From an uncultured delta proteobacterium (GTDB taxonomy: Bacteria; Myxococcota_A; Polyangia; Polyangiales; Polyangiaceae), in contig CAWAIF010000003.1 in assembly GCA_963782055.1 (NCBI GenBank), positions 1,632,001-1,696,000 of the forward strand: 64,000 nt of DNA, read 5' to 3'. The position numbers and the translations under genes are program-made. Below, one piece after another: positions 46,186 through 58,898 of this stretch. Every line of letters begins with the position of its first letter. The first letter of the stretch is position 1. The notes beneath the pieces are model-generated. The model worked only from the letters and a program-made list of their open reading frames with translations. It was not told where the DNA came from and did no database searches.

Positions 46186-47617
46186 GGGTGGAGATCTGAC
46201 CGTGACGCCCGATCGCGCGGGAATTAACGCGATCCGTCGTTCGTTCGCGGCGGCATGATGATCCCGAACCGAGTGACGGCCGCGCGAGCGGCCACGAGTG
46301 TCCCGCCGAGCGAGCCGTCGACCCTGGAGAAACTGCGGAAGTTCGTCGAAACTCACCGGATGAAGGAGAAGATGGGGCCGCAGGCGTTCGCCCAGTTCGA
46401 GAAGGAGCTGCACGAGCGGATGATGGAGGCGGAGCGCGACATCGTGGCCGCGGAGATGAAGCGGCTCGATGTCGACGCCGACGCGGTGGTGATCGACGGC
46501 AAGGTCCATCGCCGGGTGCTGCGCGCGTCGCAGACGTACATCACGTCGGCCGGCGAGGTCGTCGTCGAGCGCACGCTCTACAAGGACCGGAAGGACGAGG
46601 ATGGACGCTGCGTGAGCCCGATGGAGCTGACGCTCGGCGTGATCGGCGACTTCTGGACGCCGCGCGCCGCGCAGCAGGCGCTCTGGGTCGCCGCGCAGAT
46701 GACGCCGAAGAAGGGGGCCGAGTTGTTCGAGCGCATCGGGAACATGGCGCCATCCAAGAGCAGCCTCGATCGGCTGCCGAAGCTCGTCGCCAAGCGTTGG
46801 GAGGGCGATCGCGAAGCGTTCGAGGCCGCGCTCCGCGACGGCCTCCAGGTGCCCGAGGGTACGACCTCGATCGCCGTCTCGCTCGACGGCGTTCTCGCTC
46901 CGATCGACGGTGCGAACAGCCCGACGGAGGTGCGCGCAAGAGCCGCCGACGAAGGACGTCTGAGCAAGGGGCCGGCCGGATACCGCGAGGCGAGCTGCGC
47001 AACGATTCTCGTTCTGCGACGACAAGGGCGATCTGCTCGGCGCGATTCGCATGGCGCGCGCGCCGGAGGCGAAGAAGAAGACCTTGAAGGAGATGCTGGC
47101 CGCCGAGATCGCCGCCGTCCTCCGACGCAAGCCCACGCTGAAGCTCGTGAAGGTCGCGGACGGCGCGGCGGACAACTGGCAGTACCTCTCGTCGGACGCG
47201 CTGCCGGCCGGCGACGAGGTCGTCGACTTCTTTCACGCGAGCGAGCATCTGCATGCAGCGATCGCCGAGGCATACGGCGACGCGACGCACGAGACGCAGT
47301 TCCGCTACGCGACGCTCCGCGACACGCTGCGCGACGAGGAGGACGGCGTCGACAAGGTCATCCGCGCCCTCAAGCACCTCGCGAGCAAGCACTCGCGCAA
47401 GGCGATCATCGCGCGCGAGCTGGCCTACTTCCGCAAGCACAAGCGGCGGATGCGCTACTTCGACCTGCAGTCGAAGGGACTCATGATCGGCTCGGGCATC
47501 GTCGAGGCCGCATGCAAGACGCTCGTCACGCAGCGCCTGAAGCAGAGCGGGATGCGATGGAGCACGCCCGGCGCTCAGGCGATCCTCACGCCGCGCGGAT
47601 GGGACCAGAGCGAGCGC
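46186..47617 (+). mobile_element. ISKra4-like (UPF0236/mutator-type DDE) insertion sequence, frameshifted and 3'-truncated
   Basis: Transposase from 46255: SLDGV, GYREASC, KVADGA.DNW, DFFHASEHL, IGSGIVEAACK..V.QRLK.SGMRW; frameshift at GATTC 47004-47008; putative left end GGGTGGAGATCTGAC; no right end seen. Confidence 0.82.
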
Positions 47618-47621
47618 GACG

Positions 47622-47945
47622 TTCGCGACGATGCCGACCGATCCCGAGCCGGACATTGAGTACAACGTGGCTGTGCGCGAGCAACTCACGTAGCAGTACG
47701 TGTGCGCGGGTCGATCGCCAACGCATCCGTACAGCATGTGCCAGAACCTCCTGGGCACGCCGCAGACGACGTGGTGCACCGCGGCGGACCCCACCATTTG
47801 CGGGCAAGGACGTGGGTGTTTCATCTACACCGTGGACGGCCCATCGCAGTCGTTCGCCGACGCACATGGTGTCTGCATCGACATCGGCATCTGCCTCGCC
47901 GCCGGCCAGTCCTACCCGGGCGGCGCGAAGTGCGTGCATCAGTAG
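47622..47945 (+). pseudogene. Gene fragment: diverged copy of 45113-45190 (in-frame TAG) followed in frame by a Cys-rich tail
   Basis: 64/78 nt identical to 45113-45190; continues into ORF 47700..47945. Confidence 0.55.
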
Positions 47946-50415: not shown

Positions 50416-50431
50416 TGCGCGTCCCGTGCCG
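50416..50431 (-). promoter_or_regulatory. Possible sigma54 promoter
   Basis: Minus strand cGGCACGggacgcGCa (GG-N10-GC) upstream of the GAGG SD and ATG 50390. Confidence 0.5.
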
Positions 50432-50524
50432 AGGCCGATTTCCAGCACTTATGCGGCCCAAATCCGCATCAGGTTCGTGCCGGGTGCACCGGCTGCGGTC
50501 GCTTCGGCTAGCCTTGCACCCGGA

Positions 50525-52675
50525 ATGGCGCGCCGCGCTCGACTGACCCTCGTCCAGCTCTTCGTGCTCACCACCGTGGTGGTGGCCGTGGTGGCGGGGG
50601 CGGCGCTCTTCGTCCTCGTCGGTTCGTCGCGTGCTTCCATCCTGCAGTCCGCCGAGGTGCAGCGCGAGGCGGAAGCCCGCGACGTCGACGAGCAGGTGAC
50701 CAGGGAGCTGGGCGTCGCGGGCGACACCCTCGCCGAGGTGGAGCGCGCGATGCGCCACGGCGCGGTGCGGGCCGACGACCCCTCCGCGGTGGAGGTGACG
50801 CTGTTCACGGCGCTGCTCGATCACCCCAGCCTCTCCGACGTCACCTTCACCCACGCCAGCAGCGAGGGCTTCGCCCCCGACGGCGACATGCGACTCGCGC
50901 CCGACGACCGGTGGCAGGTCTCGCTGTACCGCACGCACGGGGGCAAGGCGTACACGCGGCGCGTCTCGCAGCAGGGCGGCGTGCTCGTCGCCGACGTGCG
51001 CCAGCGACCGCCGGACGGCGGGCTCGACTCGGCCCCCTTCACGCGGGAGGCGGGCGCGACCGACCCGACGCGCCACCCCACCTTCGAGGTGACGGCGTCG
51101 AAGGGGTCCTACGGCAAGGCCATCTGGAGCGACCTGCACTGGTCGGAGCGCGACGCCGCGATCCCGAAGAAGCAGCGACGCGTCGTCGTCACCGTGCAGA
51201 AGGCGGTGGAGGACACCCAGGGCCACTTCGTCGGCGTGCTGCGCGTCGGGCTGGACACACGGATGCTCGACAAGGTGCCCGTCGCCGCCGCGCGGGGCGC
51301 GACCGACGGCCGGCAGGTCTTCCTCTGCGACGCCCAGGGGAGGCTGGTGGCGCGGCCCGAACCGGGCGACGCGCTGGAGGTCTCCGGCGACGACCTGCGC
51401 GTGGCGCCCGCGCACCTGGACGCGACCATCGCCGCCGCGCTCGCCAGCCCCCGCCTGCGCGAGGTAAAGGAGGGCCGTCCGCGATCCGACACGCTGGACG
51501 TGGGCGGCCGCCGGGTGCTCGTCACCTTCCGCGCGCTGGCGCACACGCAGGGCTGGGTGGTGGGCGTGGCCGTGCCCGAGCAGGCCTACACCCACGCGCT
51601 GACGTCGCTGCGCGGCCGCTTCCTCGGCGTCTTCGGTGGCCTCGTGGTGGTGGTGCTGCTCGCCGGCGGCTTCGTCCTGCGCGCGCTGCGGCGCGGCCTG
51701 GGGTCCATCGTGGCGTCCACGTCGCGGATGCGCGCGCTGGACTTCGGGCCGCAGGCTCCCGAGAGCGCGTTTCGTGACGTGGCGGAGGTGCAGGCGGAGC
51801 TGGAGCGCGCCAAGACCTCGATGCGCGCGCTCGGCAAGTACGTGCCGCTCGATCTGGTGCGCGATCTCTACGAGTCCAACCGCGAGCCGAAGCTGGGCGG
51901 CGAGCTGGTCGAGCTCTCCATGATGTTCACCGACATCGAGGGCTTCACCACGCTCTCGGAGAAGCTGGCGCCCGACGTGCTGGCGGAGGCGCTCGGCCTG
52001 TACCTGGCGGCGATGACCGAGGGCGTACGCGAGCAGGGCGGCACCGTGGACAAATTCGTCGGCGACGCGGTGATGGCGTTCTGGAACGCGCCGCACCCGG
52101 TCGAGGACCACGCGACGCGGGCGTGCCGCGCGGTGGTGGCGTGCATGCAGAAGACTCGGGCGCTCTACGCGTCGCCGGCGTGGGAGGAGCTGCCGCCGCT
52201 CTTCACGCGGTTCGGCCTGCACCGCGCGACGGTGATGGTGGGGCACTTCGGCGCGCCCGATCGCTTCAGCTACACCGCGCTCGGCGACGGAGTGAACCTC
52301 GCGTCGCGGCTGGAGGGGCTCTGCAAGCACTACGGGGTCGCGGTGCTCGCCAGCGAGGCCGTGATGGAGCGCGCCCGCGACGAGTTCGCCTTCCGGCTGG
52401 TGGACAGGGTGGCGGTGAAGGGCAAGACGGAGGGCGTGCGCGTCTACGAGCTGCTCGGCCCGAAGGACGCCGCCGACGCCGGCGCGGGCGTGGTGGAGGC
52501 GTACGAGAAGGCGCTGGAGGCCTACTTCGCGCGCGACTTCGGGGGGGCGCTGCGGCTGCTCGAGCCTCACCCCGACGACCCGCCGAGCGGGGTGCTGGCG
52601 CGACGGTGCAGGGCGCTGCTGGAGGACCCGCCGCCGGAGGACTGGGACGGCGTCTACGTGGCGACGTCGAAGTGA
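50525..52675 (+). CDS. Class III adenylate/guanylate cyclase with periplasmic Cache-like sensor and HAMP-like linker
   Basis: Two TMs; MFTDIEGFTTLSE, VDKFVGDAVMAFW, YTALGDGVNLASRLEG, VAVKGK. Confidence 0.92.
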   Translation: MARRARLTLVQLFVLTTVVVAVVAGAALFVLVGSSRASILQSAEVQREAEARDVDEQVTRELGVAGDTLAEVERAMRHGAVRADDPSAVEVTLFTALLDHPSLSDVTFTHASSEGFAPDGDMRLAPDDRWQVSLYRTHGGKAYTRRVSQQGGVLVADVRQRPPDGGLDSAPFTREAGATDPTRHPTFEVTASKGSYGKAIWSDLHWSERDAAIPKKQRRVVVTVQKAVEDTQGHFVGVLRVGLDTRMLDKVPVAAARGATDGRQVFLCDAQGRLVARPEPGDALEVSGDDLRVAPAHLDATIAAALASPRLREVKEGRPRSDTLDVGGRRVLVTFRALAHTQGWVVGVAVPEQAYTHALTSLRGRFLGVFGGLVVVVLLAGGFVLRALRRGLGSIVASTSRMRALDFGPQAPESAFRDVAEVQAELERAKTSMRALGKYVPLDLVRDLYESNREPKLGGELVELSMMFTDIEGFTTLSEKLAPDVLAEALGLYLAAMTEGVREQGGTVDKFVGDAVMAFWNAPHPVEDHATRACRAVVACMQKTRALYASPAWEELPPLFTRFGLHRATVMVGHFGAPDRFSYTALGDGVNLASRLEGLCKHYGVAVLASEAVMERARDEFAFRLVDRVAVKGKTEGVRVYELLGPKDAADAGAGVVEAYEKALEAYFARDFGGALRLLEPHPDDPPSGVLARRCRALLEDPPPEDWDGVYVATSK

Positions 52676-52679
52676 GGTC

Positions 52680-53168
52680 TCACGTCGCGGCCGTCCGTCC
52701 GTCCTCCTTCGCCGCCCGGCCGAGGTTGCGGAACAACAGGTGGTCGACGGAGAGCGCGCCGGGGCCGATGATGGCGATCATGACGAGCACGACCAGGTAC
52801 GTGAACTCGTCGGCGCCGATGAGATCGAACAGACCATGAATATCGGGGAGCTTCGCCGTGAGGATGGCGACGATCATGCTCACGATGAGCGGGATGGTGC
52901 CCAGCCGCGTGAGCAGGCCGATCACCAGCAGCACGCCGCAGACGAGCTCGCTGTAGCCGACGAGCACCGCGTTGAAGTGCGGCATGGGGATGTGCAGGCT
53001 CTCGAAGAAGCTCGTCACCTTGGCGACGTTGTGGACCTTGCCCCACCCGGTGGACATGAAGAGCAGTCCCACCGCGAGGCGCCCGAGCAGCGGCGCGAGC
53101 CACTTCACGCGCTCCACCAGGCCGAGGCCCACCGCGCTTCCCCTCTCCACCAGATCCTTCATCCCCAT
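52680..53168 (-). CDS. DoxX family membrane protein
   Basis: LGRLAVGLLFMSTGWGK, ELVCGVLLVIGLLTR, GPGALSVD; GGAGAGG SD. Confidence 0.92.
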   Translation of the reverse strand: MGMKDLVERGSAVGLGLVERVKWLAPLLGRLAVGLLFMSTGWGKVHNVAKVTSFFESLHIPMPHFNAVLVGYSELVCGVLLVIGLLTRLGTIPLIVSMIVAILTAKLPDIHGLFDLIGADEFTYLVVLVMIAIIGPGALSVDHLLFRNLGRAAKEDGRTAAT

Positions 53169-53204
53169 CGCGTCATCCTCTCCCTTCGCGGCGTCCTCTG
53201 TCCA

Positions 53205-53230
53205 TACGTCGATGGGCGCGGCAGGTTTCG
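53205..53230 (-). promoter_or_regulatory. ECF-sigma-type promoter upstream of doxX
   Basis: Minus strand CGAAAC-N16-CGTA; the same motif occurs at 54842-54868. Confidence 0.6.
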
Positions 53231-53246
53231 TCGCCGGCGTCTGACC

Positions 53247-54689
53247 GTGCGCTCGGGGCCCGCGCTCGCGGCGCTGTCCGCGCTGGCGATGGCCTCGTGC
53301 GGCCGAGCGGAGCCTCGGCATCCCGGGCACGTCCCGCCCCGGCCGATGGCGCCGAGCGTGGTGTGGACCTTCGAGGTGAAGGCGGACGGGGTGGAGGACC
53401 TGGCCGTCGAGGCGACCTTCGAGCCCACGCGCGCCGACGCCTTCGCGGTGGACGATGCCATGCCCTTCGCGAAGGACGTCCAGATCGCCGCCGGCGCGAC
53501 GTGGACGCCGGCGGCGCGGCGCGCCGACGCCTTCGTCGTGCCGTGCGCGGAGGGCTGCCGCGTCCGCTACCACTTCGCGCTGAAGGAGGCCGCCGACTCC
53601 ATCCACGACGTCGACACCGCCATCCGGTCCGGCGACATCGTCTTCGCGCCGCCGTCGACGTGGCTCTTGCACCCGGTGTCGCCGGGGCCGCTCGGTCGCT
53701 TCCTGCTGCACGTCGACGCCGGCGCGGCCTCGCGCTTCGTCACCGGGATGGGCCGCGACAGCCAGGGCGGGTTCGTGGGGAAGACCGACGACCTGGACGA
53801 CGGCGCGTTCAGCGCGTTCGGGCCGGTCCACGTGGGCGAGGTGAAGGTCGGCGGCGCGACGCTGACGGTCGGGGTCGCCCCCGACAGGCTGCCGATGAGC
53901 GACGCGGAGGTCCTCGCGTGGGTGCGCGCGTCCGCCGGCGCGGTGGCCGCGTACTACGAGGACCGGCTGCCCGCGCGCCGGGCGCTCATCTTCGTCATGG
54001 AGGGCAGCGGCGGCCCCACGCGCGGCAAGACGCTCGGCCCGCTCGGCCCAGCGATGCTGGTGCGCGCGGGCGAGGGCGTGACGGCGAAGAACACCCGTGA
54101 CGACTGGGTCGTCACCCACGAGCTCCTGCACGTCAACTTCCCCTACATCGGCTACGACCACGCGTGGCTCACCGAGGGGCTTGCCACGTACATCGAGCCC
54201 ATCGCGCGGGCGCGGGTCGGGCTGATCGACGCGGGCAAGGTGTGGCGCGACATGATCGATGGCATGCCGCAGGGCCTCCCCGAGAAGGGCGACCGCGGTC
54301 TGGAGAACACCCCGACGTGGGGGCGGACCTACTGGGGCGGCGGCATGTTCTGCCTCGTCGCCGACGTGACCATCCGGGAGCAGACGGGCAACCGCAAGTC
54401 GCTCGACGACGTGCTGCGGGCGATCGGCAGGACCGGCGCGACGGTCCAGACGGACTGGACCGTCGGCCAGGTGCTGGACGCCGGCGACGCGGCCACCGGC
54501 ACCCGCGTGCTGCACGATCTCTATGCCAAACTCGCGCTCGCCCCCGGCGTGATCGATCTCGACGCCCTCTGGGCGAAGCTGGGCGTGCGCGCGGAGGGGG
54601 CCTCGGTGGCGTATGACGACCACGCCCCGCTGGCCGCGATCCGCCGCGCCATCACCGCCCCCGTCTCCCCCGGGTCCACCGATCGTTAG
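53247..54689 (+). CDS. Gluzincin (M1/M61-like) zinc metallopeptidase lipoprotein
   Basis: Lipobox-like MASC; THELLH plus WLTEGLATY, RTYWGG. Confidence 0.82.
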   Translation: MRSGPALAALSALAMASCGRAEPRHPGHVPPRPMAPSVVWTFEVKADGVEDLAVEATFEPTRADAFAVDDAMPFAKDVQIAAGATWTPAARRADAFVVPCAEGCRVRYHFALKEAADSIHDVDTAIRSGDIVFAPPSTWLLHPVSPGPLGRFLLHVDAGAASRFVTGMGRDSQGGFVGKTDDLDDGAFSAFGPVHVGEVKVGGATLTVGVAPDRLPMSDAEVLAWVRASAGAVAAYYEDRLPARRALIFVMEGSGGPTRGKTLGPLGPAMLVRAGEGVTAKNTRDDWVVTHELLHVNFPYIGYDHAWLTEGLATYIEPIARARVGLIDAGKVWRDMIDGMPQGLPEKGDRGLENTPTWGRTYWGGGMFCLVADVTIREQTGNRKSLDDVLRAIGRTGATVQTDWTVGQVLDAGDAATGTRVLHDLYAKLALAPGVIDLDALWAKLGVRAEGASVAYDDHAPLAAIRRAITAPVSPGSTDR

Positions 54690-54824
54690 CAGGCTCGCGA
54701 TCGCGGCGCTGGGGGCAGCTCCCGGCCGCCCCGGTGGGGCGTGACGCCAACGTGCTACTTCTGCGGCGGGGTTGACTTGGTCGAGGGGGCGGCGCCATCC
54801 TCCCGGCTTCCACGGCTCCCGAAC

Positions 54825-54868
54825 AAAAAAAAGAGACGCCGCGAAACGCGCGGCCGCCCGTGCGCGTA
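54825..54868 (+). promoter_or_regulatory. ECF-sigma-type promoter with upstream A-tract, for the RiPP operon
   Basis: A8 tract 54825-54832, then CGAAAC-N17-CGTA (54842-54868). Confidence 0.6.
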
Positions 54869-54929
54869 GGTAGAGCGCACGCGGTATAGCGGGCCGAGAA
54901 CAAACCAAGTCAACAAGAGGTCATTTCGC

Positions 54930-55241
54930 ATGAAGCTGACGCACACACTCATGGCAGCAGCGGTTGGTGGCATCCTTGCGGGCGCCACGGTGGCTTGCGG
55001 GGGCGAGACGCCGCCGCCTGCGGAGCCGGCGGCCGGCGCGACCCCCGCCGCGACCGACACCTCGGCTCCGGCCGCGGGCTCGGCGGCTCCGGCCGCGACC
55101 GACACGGCGGCGCCCGCGGCCGGCGCGAAGCACGCCTGCAAGGGCCAGAACGACTGCAAGGGTCAGGGCGGCTGCAAGACCGACGCGCACGCCTGCAAGG
55201 GCCAGAACGACTGCAAGGGCCAGGGCGGCTGCCACGGCTGA
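54930..55241 (+). CDS. MNIO-class RiPP precursor (bufferin BufA2-like), apparently a lipoprotein
   Basis: Signal peptide ending TVA-C23, Ala/Pro/Thr linker, two HACKGQNDCKGQGGC repeats; directly upstream of DUF692. Confidence 0.85.
   Translation: MKLTHTLMAAAVGGILAGATVACGGETPPPAEPAAGATPAATDTSAPAAGSAAPAATDTAAPAAGAKHACKGQNDCKGQGGCKTDAHACKGQNDCKGQGGCHG
55131..55232 (+). repeat. Near-perfect 45-bp direct repeat encoding the two core units
   Basis: 55131-55175 and 55188-55232 differ by one synonymous base (ggt/ggc). Confidence 0.9.
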
Positions 55242-55302
55242 GGGTCGCCGAGCGTGAGCGCCCGCGGCTCCGGCCGCCGGCGCCCCGCTCACACCCGTCG
55301 TC

Positions 55303-56133
55303 ATGGCGAATCGTTTTGGCCTGCCCGACCTCGGGATCGGCCTGGGCCTGAGGACGGTGCACTACAAGCGCATCCTGGAGGACGAGCCGTCGGTCGACTG
55401 GTTCGAGATCCTCAGCGAGAACTACATGCAGACGTCCGGCCGCCCGCTGGACTTCGCGGACGCCGTCGCCGCGCGCTACCCCGTGGTCATGCACGGGGTG
55501 TCCATGTCCGTCGGCTCCAGCGATCCGCTCGACCGCGAGTACCTGAAGGAGCTCAAGGCGCTGCGCGACCGCCTCGGCGCGCGCTGGGTGTCCGACCACC
55601 TGTGCTGGACGGGCGTGGCCGGCAAGAACACCCACGACCTCTTGCCGCTCCCCTACACCGAGGAGGCGCTGGCGCACGTGGCCGGCAGGGTGCGCGCGGT
55701 CCAGGACTTCCTGGGCGCGCCGCTCGCGCTGGAGAACCCCTCCACCTACGCCGAGCTCACCGGCGCGACGATGCGCGAGTGGGAGTTCCTCGGCCGCCTG
55801 GCCGAGGAGGCCGACTGCGCCATCCTGCTCGACGTGAACAACGTCTACGTCTCCGCGTTCAACCACGGCTTCGACCCGATGACGTACCTCGAGGCGGTGC
55901 CCTTCGATCGCGTGGTGCAGCTCCACGTGGCGGGGCACACCCACCACGGCACGCACATCATCGACTCGCACATCGGTCCGGTGATCGACCCGGTGTGGAA
56001 GCTGCTCGCCGAGGCGCACCGTCGCGCGGGCGGCGTCAGCATCCTGCTGGAGTGGGACGCCGAGATCCCCAGCTTCGAGGAGACCCACGCCGAGGCGCTG
56101 CGCGCGCGCGAGTTCCTGGGAGCGGCCGCGTGA
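55303..56133 (+). CDS. DUF692 multinuclear non-heme iron oxidase (MNIO; MbnB/TglH/ChrH/BufB family)
   Basis: [62 protein letters not shown]. Confidence 0.95.
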
Positions 56134-57104
56134 CCGCCGACGCGCGCCGGCAGATGACGCGGCAGGCGACGGCCGACGCCGTCGGCGTGCACGAGCGGGC
56201 GAGCGCCACGCCGTCGCATGTCACCGCCCGGCACGCCGCCGAGCCCGCCGGGAAGCCCGCGCCACGCGCCCCGGCGTCGCCGGAGCTGCCCGCGCACCTC
56301 GATCTGCGCGCCCACCAGGAGTGGTTCTCGGCGGCGGTCACCACGCCGGAGTCGGAGCCCGCGCCCGTGGACGAGGCGACGGCCCCGCGCCTGGTCACGT
56401 CCAGCCGCACCATGACCTCCCTCGAGCGGCTGGAGGTCTACCGCCGCGGCTACCACGCGCGGCTGGTGGAGTGTCTCGCCGACGACTACCCGGTGCTCGC
56501 CCACCTGCTCGGCGAGGAGGCGTTCGACGCGCTCTGCCGCGCCTACATCGCACGCTTCCCCTCGCGCGCGCCCAACCTCAACGCCTACGGCCGCCACATG
56601 GCGGAGCTCTGTCGCGCCGAGCCGCTCGCCGACCCGGCCTTCGCCGCCGACCTCGCCACGCTGGAGTGGGCGATCGTCACCGCGATCCACGCCCCTACCG
56701 CGCCCCTGCTCTCGCCGGAGGACCTGGCGAAGGTCCCCGCCGAGCGCTGGCCCCAGGCGCGCCTGGAGCCCAACCCGTCGCTCCGCGTGCTGCACCTGTC
56801 GCACCCGGTCAACGCGTACTTCCAGGCGTTCCGGACGGGCGCGCCCGTCCCGGTGGCGGACGCCCGCGGCGAGATCGCCGTCGCGGTCTATCGCACCGGC
56901 AAGAGCCTCTGGCGCATGGAGCTCGCCCCGGCGATGGTCGTGCTCGTCGAGTCGCTCGCCGCGCGCAAGACACTGCTCGCGTCGCTCGACGCGGTGGAGC
57001 CCCTGCTCGACGTGCAGGACGAGGCCGCCGCCGGCCAGCTCGTGATGTCCTGGTTCCAGAACAGCATCTCCAGCGGGATGTTCTCCGGGGTATCGTTGGG
57101 GTAG
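56130..57104 (+). CDS. DUF2063-type MNIO partner protein (BufC/HvfC-like)
   Basis: GTGA-coupled; [20 protein letters not shown]....LG...F..L...Y...PS...[12 protein letters not shown]. Confidence 0.88.
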
Positions 57105-58898
57105 TGACCCGCGCCCCGCTGCTGGACGAGGCCCTCCGCGCGCTGGGTGTGCGGCGGCTCCTCTTCGCGATCCACGACGCCTGCTTCCCGTCGGACGACG
57201 ACGAGGATCTGGGCGCCGGATCGCCGCACACCAGGGCGGCGGCGCGGCTGCTCGCCTGGCTCGGCGAGAGCGGCTTCACCGGCGTGCAGCTCGGCCCCCA
57301 GGGGCGTACGTCGCGCGGCAACGGCTCGCCGTACGACGCGACCATGTTCTCCCGGAACCCGATGACCATCCCCGTCGCCTCCTTCGGCGGCGAGGGTCCG
57401 TGGCGGGGGCTCGTGCCGGAGGAGCTGCTCGCGCGGGCCGTGGAGCGTGGCCGCGGTCACGAACGGTCGCGGCACGAGGTCGCCTTCGACGCCGTCACCG
57501 AGATCACCGCGGCGGCGTTCGAAGCCTTCGAGCGCGGCGCCCGGCCGGAATCTCGCGCCGCGCCTGCGCCGCTTCCGCGCCGACCACGCGGCGTGGCTGG
57601 AGCGCGACGCCCTCTACCACGCGCTGCGCGCCGAGCACGGCACGACGTTCGCCACCTGGCCGCGCGACGGCGACCTCCACGACGACGGCGATCACGCCGC
57701 CCGCCGCCGCGAGCTCCTCGCCGAGCACGCGCACGCCGTCACGCGCTACGCCTTCGAGCAGCTCCTGGTGCACGAGGAGCACCACCGCCTCCACACCCTC
57801 GCGAGGGGGCTCGGCCTCACCCTCTTCGGCGATCTCCAGGTGGGCGCGTCCGACGCCGACACCTGGGGCGCCCGCGCGTGCTTCCTGGACGGCTACGCCA
57901 TGGGCGCCCCGCCCAGCCGCACCAACCCGGAGGGCCAGCCCTGGAACTACCCGGTGCTGGACCCGGATCGCTACGACGGCGAGGCCGGCGCGCTGCTCGA
58001 CGCGCGCCTGCACAAGGCCTTCGAGGAGTATGACGGCCTGCGCGTGGACCACCCGCACGGGCTGGTGTGCCCGTGGGTCTATCGCGCCGGCACCGACGAT
58101 CCGCTGCGCGCCGTGCAGCACGGCACGCGCCTCTTCGCCTCGCCGGACCTGCCCGATCACCCCGAGCTGGCGCGCTTCGCCATCGCGAGGCCGGAGCAGC
58201 TCGCGCGCTCGGTGCCGCGTCACGCCGACGGCTGGGTCACCGACCTGGATGACGACCAGGTGCACCGCTACGCGCGCCTGTTCGATCGCATCGTGGACGC
58301 CGCGCACCGCTCTGGCCGCTCGCGCGAGGACATCGCGTGCGAGGTGCTCAGCACCATGCCCTTCCCCCTCGGCAGGGTGCTCGCGCGCCACGGCCTGGGA
58401 CGCTACCGCGTGGCGCAGAAGGCCAACCTGGACGACCCGACCGACGTCTACCGCTCGGAGAACGCGCGCCCCGAGGACTGGGTGATGCTCGGCAACCACG
58501 ACACCCGCTCGGTCTGGCGCATCGAGCGCGAGATGACCGCCGGCGCGCGCGAGAAGTGGGTCCGTCACCTCTGCGCGCGGCTGGGGCGCACCCCGCACGA
58601 GCTCTCCGCGCCCGGCGCCCTCGCCCACGCCATGCTCGCCGAGCTCTTCGCCTCGCCCGCCCGGAACGTGAGCCTCTTCTTCGCCGACCTGTTCGGCATC
58701 ACCGAGCGCTACAACGCCCCGGGCACCGTCAGCGACGACAACTGGTCGCTCCGCCTGCCGGCGTCCTTCGAGCGGCTTCATCGCGAGCGTCGCGCGCGGG
58801 GGGCGGCGCTGGATCTCGCCCTCGTGCTCGCGTGGGCGCTCGAGGCCCGCGGTCCGGAGCACACGGAGCTCGCGAGCCGGCTGCGCGAGCCACGCTAG
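57104..58898 (+). CDS. malQ: 4-alpha-glucanotransferase (amylomaltase, GH77) with an apparent +1 frameshift at about 57548-57552
   Basis: [49 protein letters not shown]...NWS; deleting one A in GAATC joins the frames (RPDLAPRL). Confidence 0.85.

Follow-up and report, generated by a model that had tools for sequence, protein, structure and literature searches.

A window of 64,000 nucleotides (nt) from the genome of an uncultured delta proteobacterium (contig CAWAIF010000003.1 of assembly GCA_963782055.1, forward-strand positions 1,632,001 to 1,696,000) contains a gene cluster for a cysteine-rich precursor peptide and a multinuclear non-heme iron-dependent oxidase (MNIO). The host genome is 7.58 Mb in size with a G+C content of 72%, and the closest named relatives of the locus carry Polyangiaceae labels, which points to a myxobacterium. 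The cluster comprises bufA, encoding the precursor, bufB, encoding the MNIO maturase, and bufC, encoding its DUF2063 partner, the start of bufC overlapping the stop of bufB by 4 nt (Table 1). A doxX gene sits 1.8 kb upstream of bufA, and between the two lies a 1.4-kb gene that was absent from an earlier description made from the letters of this DNA (the sequence-only reading); the coordinates that this description gave for its genes all hold. The interpretation favoured here, which we consider probable, is a bufferin-2-like operon in which the cysteines of BufA would be oxidised by BufBC, and the peptide would be exported, lipidated at Cys23 and bind copper on the membrane. The intervening gene, encoding a putative peptidase, recurs beside such clusters and is genetically tied to them, which is the main addition of this study.

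Table 1. Genes and sequence features of the bufA locus (window positions; numbers beginning with G, L and P in the text label the genomes, loci and precursor homologs compared).
Feature	Position	Strand	Basis
doxX (bufD-like) membrane protein	52680-53168	-	PF07681 76.4 bits; NF050144 HvfX 71.2 against a cut-off of 80
Candidate SigF-type promoter GAAAC-N16-CGTA	53205-53229	-	ends 36 nt before doxX
HExxH protein, putative M61/M1 fold	53247-54689	+	structure model, structural matches, MNIO linkage
Candidate SigF-type promoter GAAAC-N17-CGTA	54843-54868	+	ends 61 nt before bufA
Ribosome-binding site AAGAGG before bufA	54915-54920	+	sequence
bufA, Buf2-like precursor, 103 aa	54930-55241	+	NF050166 BufA2 47 bits against a cut-off of 60; Cys register
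Predicted lipoprotein signal (signal peptide aa 1-22, then Cys23)	54930-54998	+	PROSITE-type rule; -3 Thr, +2 Gly
Ala/Pro/Thr tether, aa 24-67	54999-55130	+	composition; homolog tethers alike
Six-Cys core, spacing 5-5-6-5-5	55131-55238	+	same spacing in 88 of 89 six-Cys sequences
Two identical 15-aa units of the BufA core	55131-55175 and 55188-55232	+	sequence
bufB, MNIO (DUF692) maturase	55303-56133	+	NF050167 346 bits, PF05114 356 bits, His/Asp/Glu motifs
bufC, DUF2063 partner	56130-57104	+	PF09836 75.8 bits; NF050145 HvfC 53.8 bits, under cut-off

Profile searches confirmed the proposal of the sequence-only reading that the genes form a bufferin-type MNIO system. BufB matched NF050167 (MNIO_BufB) at 346 bits, over the cut-off of 310, PF05114 and PF09836 were found in BufB and BufC as that reading had expected, and the protein encoded nearby is indeed a DoxX (PF07681). 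Residues H64, H99, E144, D177, H208, D221/H223, E250 and D252 of BufB align with those of 3BWW, TglH and MbnB, the iron-ligand motifs and the catalytic Asp being intact. One position speaks against a typical bufferin-2 maturase, since the catalytic Asp252 is followed by Ala253 (E250-W-D252-A253) and not by the Asp found there in the MNIOs of Cys-Lys captophorins (Asp251 in BufB2; PMC13097082). In a set of GTDB loci seeded with the core pattern of the precursor (79 loci from the best 80 of 582 matches), the EWDA form was present in 16 of the 66 scored loci and EWDD in 46, the motif being unread in the other 13. DoxX is reported to be dispensable for Buf1 (PMC11626156).

BufA has Cys residues at positions 23, 70, 76, 82, 89, 95 and 101, with Lys after five of the six core Cys. 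Residues 68-82 and 87-101 are identical in protein sequence, and 44 of 45 nucleotides encoding them are the same. The sequence-only reading described these units as a tandem core; the two units and the six Cys stand, and the idea of two independent cores was rejected, since the six Cys are the norm of the family and the repeat is better read as the symmetry of a single domain. Four precursors of relatives pass the BufA2 cut-off of NF050166 with 65-80 bits (two short-type ones miss it), and when BufA is aligned with these four proteins the six Cys are invariant and in register. Six Cys occur in 90% of Buf2 (PMC12452194), and the two halves of the core are fully identical in just 15 of the 89 six-Cys sequences, whose spacing is otherwise nearly constant (Table 1). 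The two 15-residue units are therefore interpreted as halves of one shortened Buf2-like domain with internal symmetry.

The feature that defines Buf2 membership, a signal peptide with six (or twelve) conserved Cys, is present in BufA with six, and NF050166 is matched by all 90 aligned precursor sequences; one relative (L289) both passes the BufA2 cut-off and has a lipobox. Several points weigh against a simple equation with bufferin 2. BufA itself misses the cut-off and is matched at profile positions 14-62 of 79 only, and the alignment shows that a segment of 7 residues is missing between Cys V and Cys VI in cores of the window type. A structure model built from the 90-sequence alignment was uninformative (predicted local distance difference test, pLDDT, 52; predicted template modelling score 0.14) and was set aside. 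By the NF050166 profile, BufA is therefore classed as Buf2-like and not as a BufA2 equivalog.

The product of the gene between doxX and bufA gave no Pfam or NCBIfam match at an E value of 0.1, and sequence searches against solved structures returned nothing significant. Its structure model (pLDDT 94.7) has the M61/M1 aminopeptidases 4fgm, 7xyo and 8j9c as best structural matches, in agreement with the protein atlas; for 4fgm the Foldseek E value is 1.5e-18, and the Z score is 26.8 with a root-mean-square deviation of 4.1 over 416 residues. The likeness to these enzymes extends to the overall fold, the HExxH motif, a downstream Glu, located 14 residues after HExxH in 116 of 116 aligned sequences, and a conserved Tyr. 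The differences are a PF05299 score of 11.8 bits, below the cut-off of 22 that none of 16 tested family members reached (best 17.9), no PDZ domain seen in the protein, and the replacement of the Glu of the GLEH motif. In M61 the Glu of the GLEH/GxMEN motif holds the free amine of the substrate. In the two true M61 proteins of the host genome this Glu precedes HExxH by 29 residues, whereas by sequence register the protein of the window has at this place a Thr that is invariant in the 116 aligned sequences, and none of 106 locus copies contains GxxE[HN]. Because the amine-binding Glu appears to be replaced by Thr, classical aminopeptidase action is doubtful. Export is predicted for the protein, as for the peptide, with a possible lipobox at Cys18 (the start codon is uncertain) and a lipobox in 32 of 72 longer homologs.

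The peptidase gene was present in 15 of the 79 core-seeded loci, where it is located upstream, divergent or behind doxX and where the records are labelled Myxococcota, Acidobacteriota, Verrucomicrobiota, Planctomycetota and Eremiobacterota. Among metagenome loci picked on the peptidase alone (the best 80 of 584), BufB was encoded within 5 kb in 23, any of BufA, B or C in 26 and DoxX in 28, and BufB was found in 12 of the 22 loci that extend 3 kb or more to each side. L137 and L166 were left out of the peptidase loci, and clustering of 78 loci at 70% identity gave a linked member in 16 of 42 clusters. In 41 related genomes, 7 of 28 peptidase copies have an MNIO gene no more than about 5 kb away, against 0.1 expected from MNIO density, although kin are not independent and the linkage ratios overstate the significance. 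Six of these seven copies adjoin a different type of precursor, in which a Cys follows the signal and short Ser-Cys repeats occur. Distant members of the peptidase family also stand beside MNIO genes at L114-L119 (G025, G029, G032, G033, G037 and G040), the precursors there combining short Ser-Cys-Gly repeats with a Cys that follows the signal.

In a phylum-wide sample, in which 76 of 301 genomes matched and 80 precursor regions were taken (the 75 best matches and 5 second copies), the peptidase was found in 2 of the 80. The second copy in the host genome is unlinked, and in the relative G019 doxX and the peptidase occur together on a contig apart from bufABC. Linked and unlinked copies are intermixed on a FastTree tree shown without support values, from which no order of events is drawn because many of the unlinked loci are short contigs. 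Specificity of the peptidase for lipid-anchored precursors was considered and rejected, a lipobox being found in 5 of 15 peptidase-bearing loci and in 18 of 79 overall. No account of the link between the peptidase and MNIO clusters was found in the open-access main texts searched: 'peptidase', 'M61' and 'aminopep' are absent from the main text of PMC12452194 and 'peptidase' from PMC13097082 and PMC8692599, and the 'metalloprotease' of PMC8719888 is AprA. The nearest precedent is a secreted prolyl oligopeptidase encoded in one dyb-type cluster, for which cleavage of the lipidated peptide has been suggested (PMC13056109).

We see an even chance that the peptidase has no action on BufA, being a stress gene that travels with these clusters through a tie to doxX or to the regulon; this would concern the peptidase alone and is in no conflict with the reading of bufABC. 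Such co-travelling is favoured by the counts for DoxX and BufB in the peptidase loci (28 and 23 of 80), by the separate contig of G019, by the occurrence of the gene with lipobox (5 of 15) and non-lipobox (10 of 15) precursors alike, and by its presence in just 2 of 80 phylum-wide regions, so that most clusters work without it. In addition, the modifications of Caulobacter Buf1 need only BufBC, and the promoter motif described below was not found upstream of the peptidase gene in the window and stands upstream of 1 of 25 linked copies. Opposed to it are the persistence of its neighbourhood with MNIO genes across several gene orders, five phyla (going by the record labels) and three or more types of precursor, the excess of linked copies over expectation in the related genomes, and the predicted export of the peptidase like that of the peptide. 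If it has a role, our guess is trimming or turnover of the exported peptide, though this is less likely than no action, and release of BufA from its lipid anchor is unlikely; the enzyme is not dedicated to cutting the lipid tether. It is likewise unlikely that the M61-fold protein is a fifth, previously unreported captophorin component, an exported zinc peptidase without the amine-binding Glu, which would cut within the N-terminal arm of the modified peptide and, in this lineage, shed copper-loaded bufferin under the control of SigF.

Regulation of the cluster is suggested by the motif GAAAC-N16/17-CGTA, which has two matches in the window, before bufA and doxX, against 0.12 expected. Among 25 relatives, 10 have it ahead of bufA (a chance rate of 0.001 per 260 nt); for doxX the strict motif was found in 1 of 15 relatives, and GTAAC-N16-CGTA precedes this gene in 9 of the 12 closest. 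Five of the 19 matches in the genome lie before bufA, doxX, the precursor gene of a second MNIO cluster, the gene adjacent to it, and an extracytoplasmic function (ECF) sigma factor gene followed by the only NrsF gene of the genome (G000:C3:2968012-2969351, L325). This sigma-NrsF pair is the probable regulator of the bufA cluster. In Caulobacter, SigF controls buf1 and buf2 (PMC11626156) and its recognition sequence is GTAACC-N16-CGAA (PMC3511200); Buf2 clusters are reported to have no sigma genes of their own (PMC12452194). The host resembles the SigF-NrsF system of Caulobacter (PMC3511200) in that an NrsF gene comes directly after an ECF sigma gene, elsewhere in the genome, and that a related candidate motif is located ahead of bufA, of doxX and of the sigma gene; it differs in the motif itself, GAAAC/GTAAC-N16/17-CGTA.

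Some observations weaken the proposed regulon. The motif was first spotted by eye and differs from that of Caulobacter SigF, its 19 genome-wide matches are hardly an enrichment over the approximately 14 expected by scaling, and a relaxed form stands before just 4 of 53 more distant precursors (shuffle rate 0.007). The exact motif is absent before the other two MNIO precursors of the host genome. No sigma-70 promoter was seen in a scan of the region, and no RNA elements are listed for it. On the minus strand, at 54838-54854, the scan reported a terminator-like hairpin with a T run that shares positions with the candidate -35 element of bufA, and the flanking A/T run is a possible upstream promoter element; a T run also precedes GAAAC in the relatives L036, L054 and L244.

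The choice of copper as the ligand follows the characterised systems, and it is quite unlikely that the peptide is made as proposed but serves mainly against another stress, such as a different metal or oxidants like hypochlorite. Arguments for another stress are the response of Caulobacter SigF to chromate and cadmium (PMC3511200), the ties of SigF/NrsF-type systems to hypochlorite in other bacteria, the existence of MerC-Buf2 fusions (PMC12452194), and the Ala for Asp at the specificity site of BufB. On the side of copper, the characterised MNIO-PME1 products generally bind this metal (PMC13097082), and bufA2 is induced by Cu and not by Fe, Zn or Mn (PMC11626156).

The copper-binding bufferin proposed here is also probably a lipoprotein, as the sequence-only reading suggested. 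The N-terminus of BufA consists of Lys2, a hydrophobic stretch with an 11-residue hydropathy peak of 2.24, and Ala-Thr-Val-Ala-Cys23-Gly-Gly. It is followed by a tether of 44 residues (24-67), of which 32 are Ala, Pro or Thr; homolog tethers are 16-63 residues long (median 34) and 57% Ala/Pro/Thr. The sequence ATVA-C23 with Lys2 falls within a PROSITE-type lipobox rule (Cys at 15-35, basic n-region), which was matched by chance in 3.9% of 100,000 shuffles of BufA residues 2-67. Among the best 120 of 1,625 homologs found, 102 have a lipobox, a further 4 carry a Cys at the corresponding position and the remaining 14 lack one there, so that the conservation of Cys23, on which the earlier suggestion depended, was found in 106; the lipobox lies 8-9 residues past a conserved Gly in 79 of 101 homologs. 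Each of the other three MNIO precursors of the host genome also has a Cys ending its hydrophobic N-terminal stretch, and the genome encodes lipoprotein machinery scoring over cut-off (three Lgt, two LspA, two Lnt and two LolA).

The evidence on the other side concerns both the cleavage site and the sampling. The A-x-A rule of signal peptidase I would be suited by T-V-A too. The strict lipobox, with Leu, Val or Ile at -3, is not present in BufA, which has Thr there, outside the consensus L-[AST]-[GA]-C (PMC3222651). The non-canonical residue lowers the certainty of lipidation, though such residues are common to the family: Ala is the commonest at -3 in the homolog lipoboxes (43 of 102), and the strict form occurs in just 33 of 102. 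A tolerance of Thr at -3 was sought in a BamD-like protein of the host genome and found no support, the lipobox there being canonical. The ranking of the 120 homologs favours similar N-termini and inflates the figure of 102, and a lipobox was found in just 18 of the 79 core-seeded loci. Within that set it is present in 9 of 12 loci labelled as myxobacterial, which counts in favour of lipidation, and, by a hand count of record titles, in 1 of 47 labelled Acidobacteriota. A precursor was detected in 64 of the 80 phylum-wide regions, with a lipobox in 40. The close homologs P0091 and P0101 have no Cys at the end of the signal.

Cleavage of BufA by signal peptidase I at the bond before Cys23 or close to it, which would make the product a normal soluble bufferin whose N-terminal arm is long and unstructured, is the least likely of the alternatives, for in spite of the Thr at -3, the nearly identical Ala/Gly-rich hydrophobic stretch of the Cys-less P0091 and P0101 and the 61 of 79 core-seeded loci without a lipobox, it would leave an unpaired seventh Cys that is kept at a fixed distance from the hydrophobic stretch in 106 of the best 120 homologs next to a freely varying tether and that has counterparts in the other three MNIO precursors of the genome.

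The signal peptides of P0091 and P0101 are nearly identical to that of P0001, with the Cys absent in the former and present in the latter, and the precursor family appears to alternate between an anchored and a soluble form. All signal types of the family retain an Ala-Ala-x-x-Gly stretch, which may be a recognition element for BufC; preliminary data for a role of the signal peptide are mentioned by the authors of PMC12452194. Some homologous precursors have twin-arginine signals (P0015, P0034, P0059, P0074, P0114 and P0120, and further such homologs at L076, L089, L268, L278, L283, L286 and L303), partly together with a lipobox (6 and 3 of the best 120); the word 'Tat' is absent from the main text of PMC12452194.

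In Myxococcus xanthus, Lys at +2 directs lipoproteins to the inner membrane and Ala at +7 to the matrix (PMC3222651). In BufA, position +2 is Gly rather than Asp or Lys and position +7 is Pro, which fit neither of the two signals, so that the outer membrane, reached via Lol, would be its destination by default, an extrapolation from M. xanthus.

The chemical and physiological steps that we infer from these genes, families, motifs and their conservation would be as follows. Transcription would depend on the SigF-NrsF-like pair and occur under metal stress, together with that of doxX and the second MNIO cluster. BufB and BufC would turn core Cys into 5-thiooxazoles in the cytoplasm. For Caulobacter Buf2 a total mass change of -18 Da has been described, made up of a loss of 4 Da at each of the central Cys and a likely disulfide between Cys I and Cys VI (10.1101/2024.03.18.585515; PMC11626156); by analogy, about four modified Cys and one disulfide may be expected here, five or six modifications being also possible because the halves of the core are identical. 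The modified BufA would then be exported by Sec and processed by Lgt, LspA and Lnt, by analogy with DybA and NedA, and the lipidated peptide would reach the outer membrane through the Lol system. There the core, at the end of its flexible tether, would bind excess copper on the membrane.

That the variant is an undescribed one, as the sequence-only reading had suggested, is not supported. About 16% of Buf2 precursors have been predicted to carry lipoprotein signals and to be possibly membrane-anchored (PMC12452194), and triacylation of DybA and of the oxazolin-type NedA, made in E. coli, has been demonstrated by mass spectrometry in a study that names such RiPP-lipoprotein hybrids DAG-RiPPs (PMC13056109). 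The same study lists bufferins among the predicted lipidated peptides and, for lipo-NedA, suggests capture of copper at the membrane. No bench test of a lipidated bufferin was seen there, so that, as far as seen, the view that characterised precursors are soluble stands for bufferins and fails for MNIO peptides in general, DybA and NedA being lipidated.

The closest known system is bufferin 2 of Caulobacter vibrioides (bufA2B2C2; BUF_6/12Cys), assigned to the Cys-Lys group of captophorins (PMC11626156, PMC12452194, PMC13097082). Both share the precursor-MNIO-DUF2063 order, an MNIO over the BufB cut-off, an N-terminal signal, six Cys in register, Cys-Lys motifs and, probably here, SigF-type control. 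They differ in that the peptide is a cleaved soluble form in Caulobacter, whereas the window precursor has a lipobox and a 44-residue tether, a core without the Cys V-VI segment and with two identical halves, and a score under the NF050166 cut-off; the MNIO has Ala after the catalytic Asp, and doxX and the peptidase gene stand alongside. With the DAG-RiPPs (DybA/DybH and NedA/NedBC; PMC13056109) the system shares an MNIO substrate with an extra Cys ending a hydrophobic signal and, as a prediction, modification before lipidation. The tested pair is chryseobasin-type and oxazolin-type (EGKCG), whereas the precursor of the window is Buf2-like and known from its sequence, and the sole peptidase mentioned for the DAG-RiPPs in that source is the prolyl oligopeptidase of the dyb-type cluster. 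The cluster of the window probably works like Buf2, and its peptide probably belongs to the DAG-RiPPs.

The host genome contains three further MNIO loci. The second cluster (G000:C3:4696012-4698275, -; L004) has a lipobox precursor with ASCG repeats, and the promoter motif stands before the precursor and the upstream gene. The third locus (G000:C3, about 4777400-4778000; L003) has a longer Cys-rich precursor with a His-Cys-Gly-Gly...Cys core and the same kind of signal and tether, arranged tail-to-tail with the MNIO gene; this type was also found at L025, L026, L028, L029 and L031. The precursor of the fourth (G000:C2, about 140740-140990; L002) combines a lipobox with a core of just one Cys. 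Outside this genome, a 12-Cys lipobox precursor resembling the myxobacterial ones was found in a record labelled Klebsiella pneumoniae (L060), with no MNIO match within 5 kb, and this is possibly a mis-binned contig.

In the window, the locus is flanked by a gene for a Cache-domain adenylate/guanylate cyclase (50426-52675, +), which ends 4 nt before the stop of doxX, and by a GH77 4-alpha-glucanotransferase gene (57447-58898, +) whose reading appears to shift frame near 57100-57560. A transposase-like reading over two frames (46255-47659), noted by eye in the open reading frame list, lies beside an ABC transporter.

The lipid-anchor idea was already in print, and what is new here is a core that is short and symmetric, a putative SigF-like regulon and a peptidase that recurs beside such clusters. 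The locus is a compact test case for a lipidated bufferin. Cys I and Cys IV share the same neighbours, and counting the Cys that are modified would distinguish an enzyme that reads local sequence from one that reads position. The promoter motif would place doxX and two MNIO clusters in one regulon with the sigma factor in this myxobacterium. Should the peptidase link be functional, it would have a bearing on the fate of the bufferin after export and metal loading: were the peptidase to free copper-loaded bufferin from its anchor, the system would be a capture-and-shed route of copper disposal.

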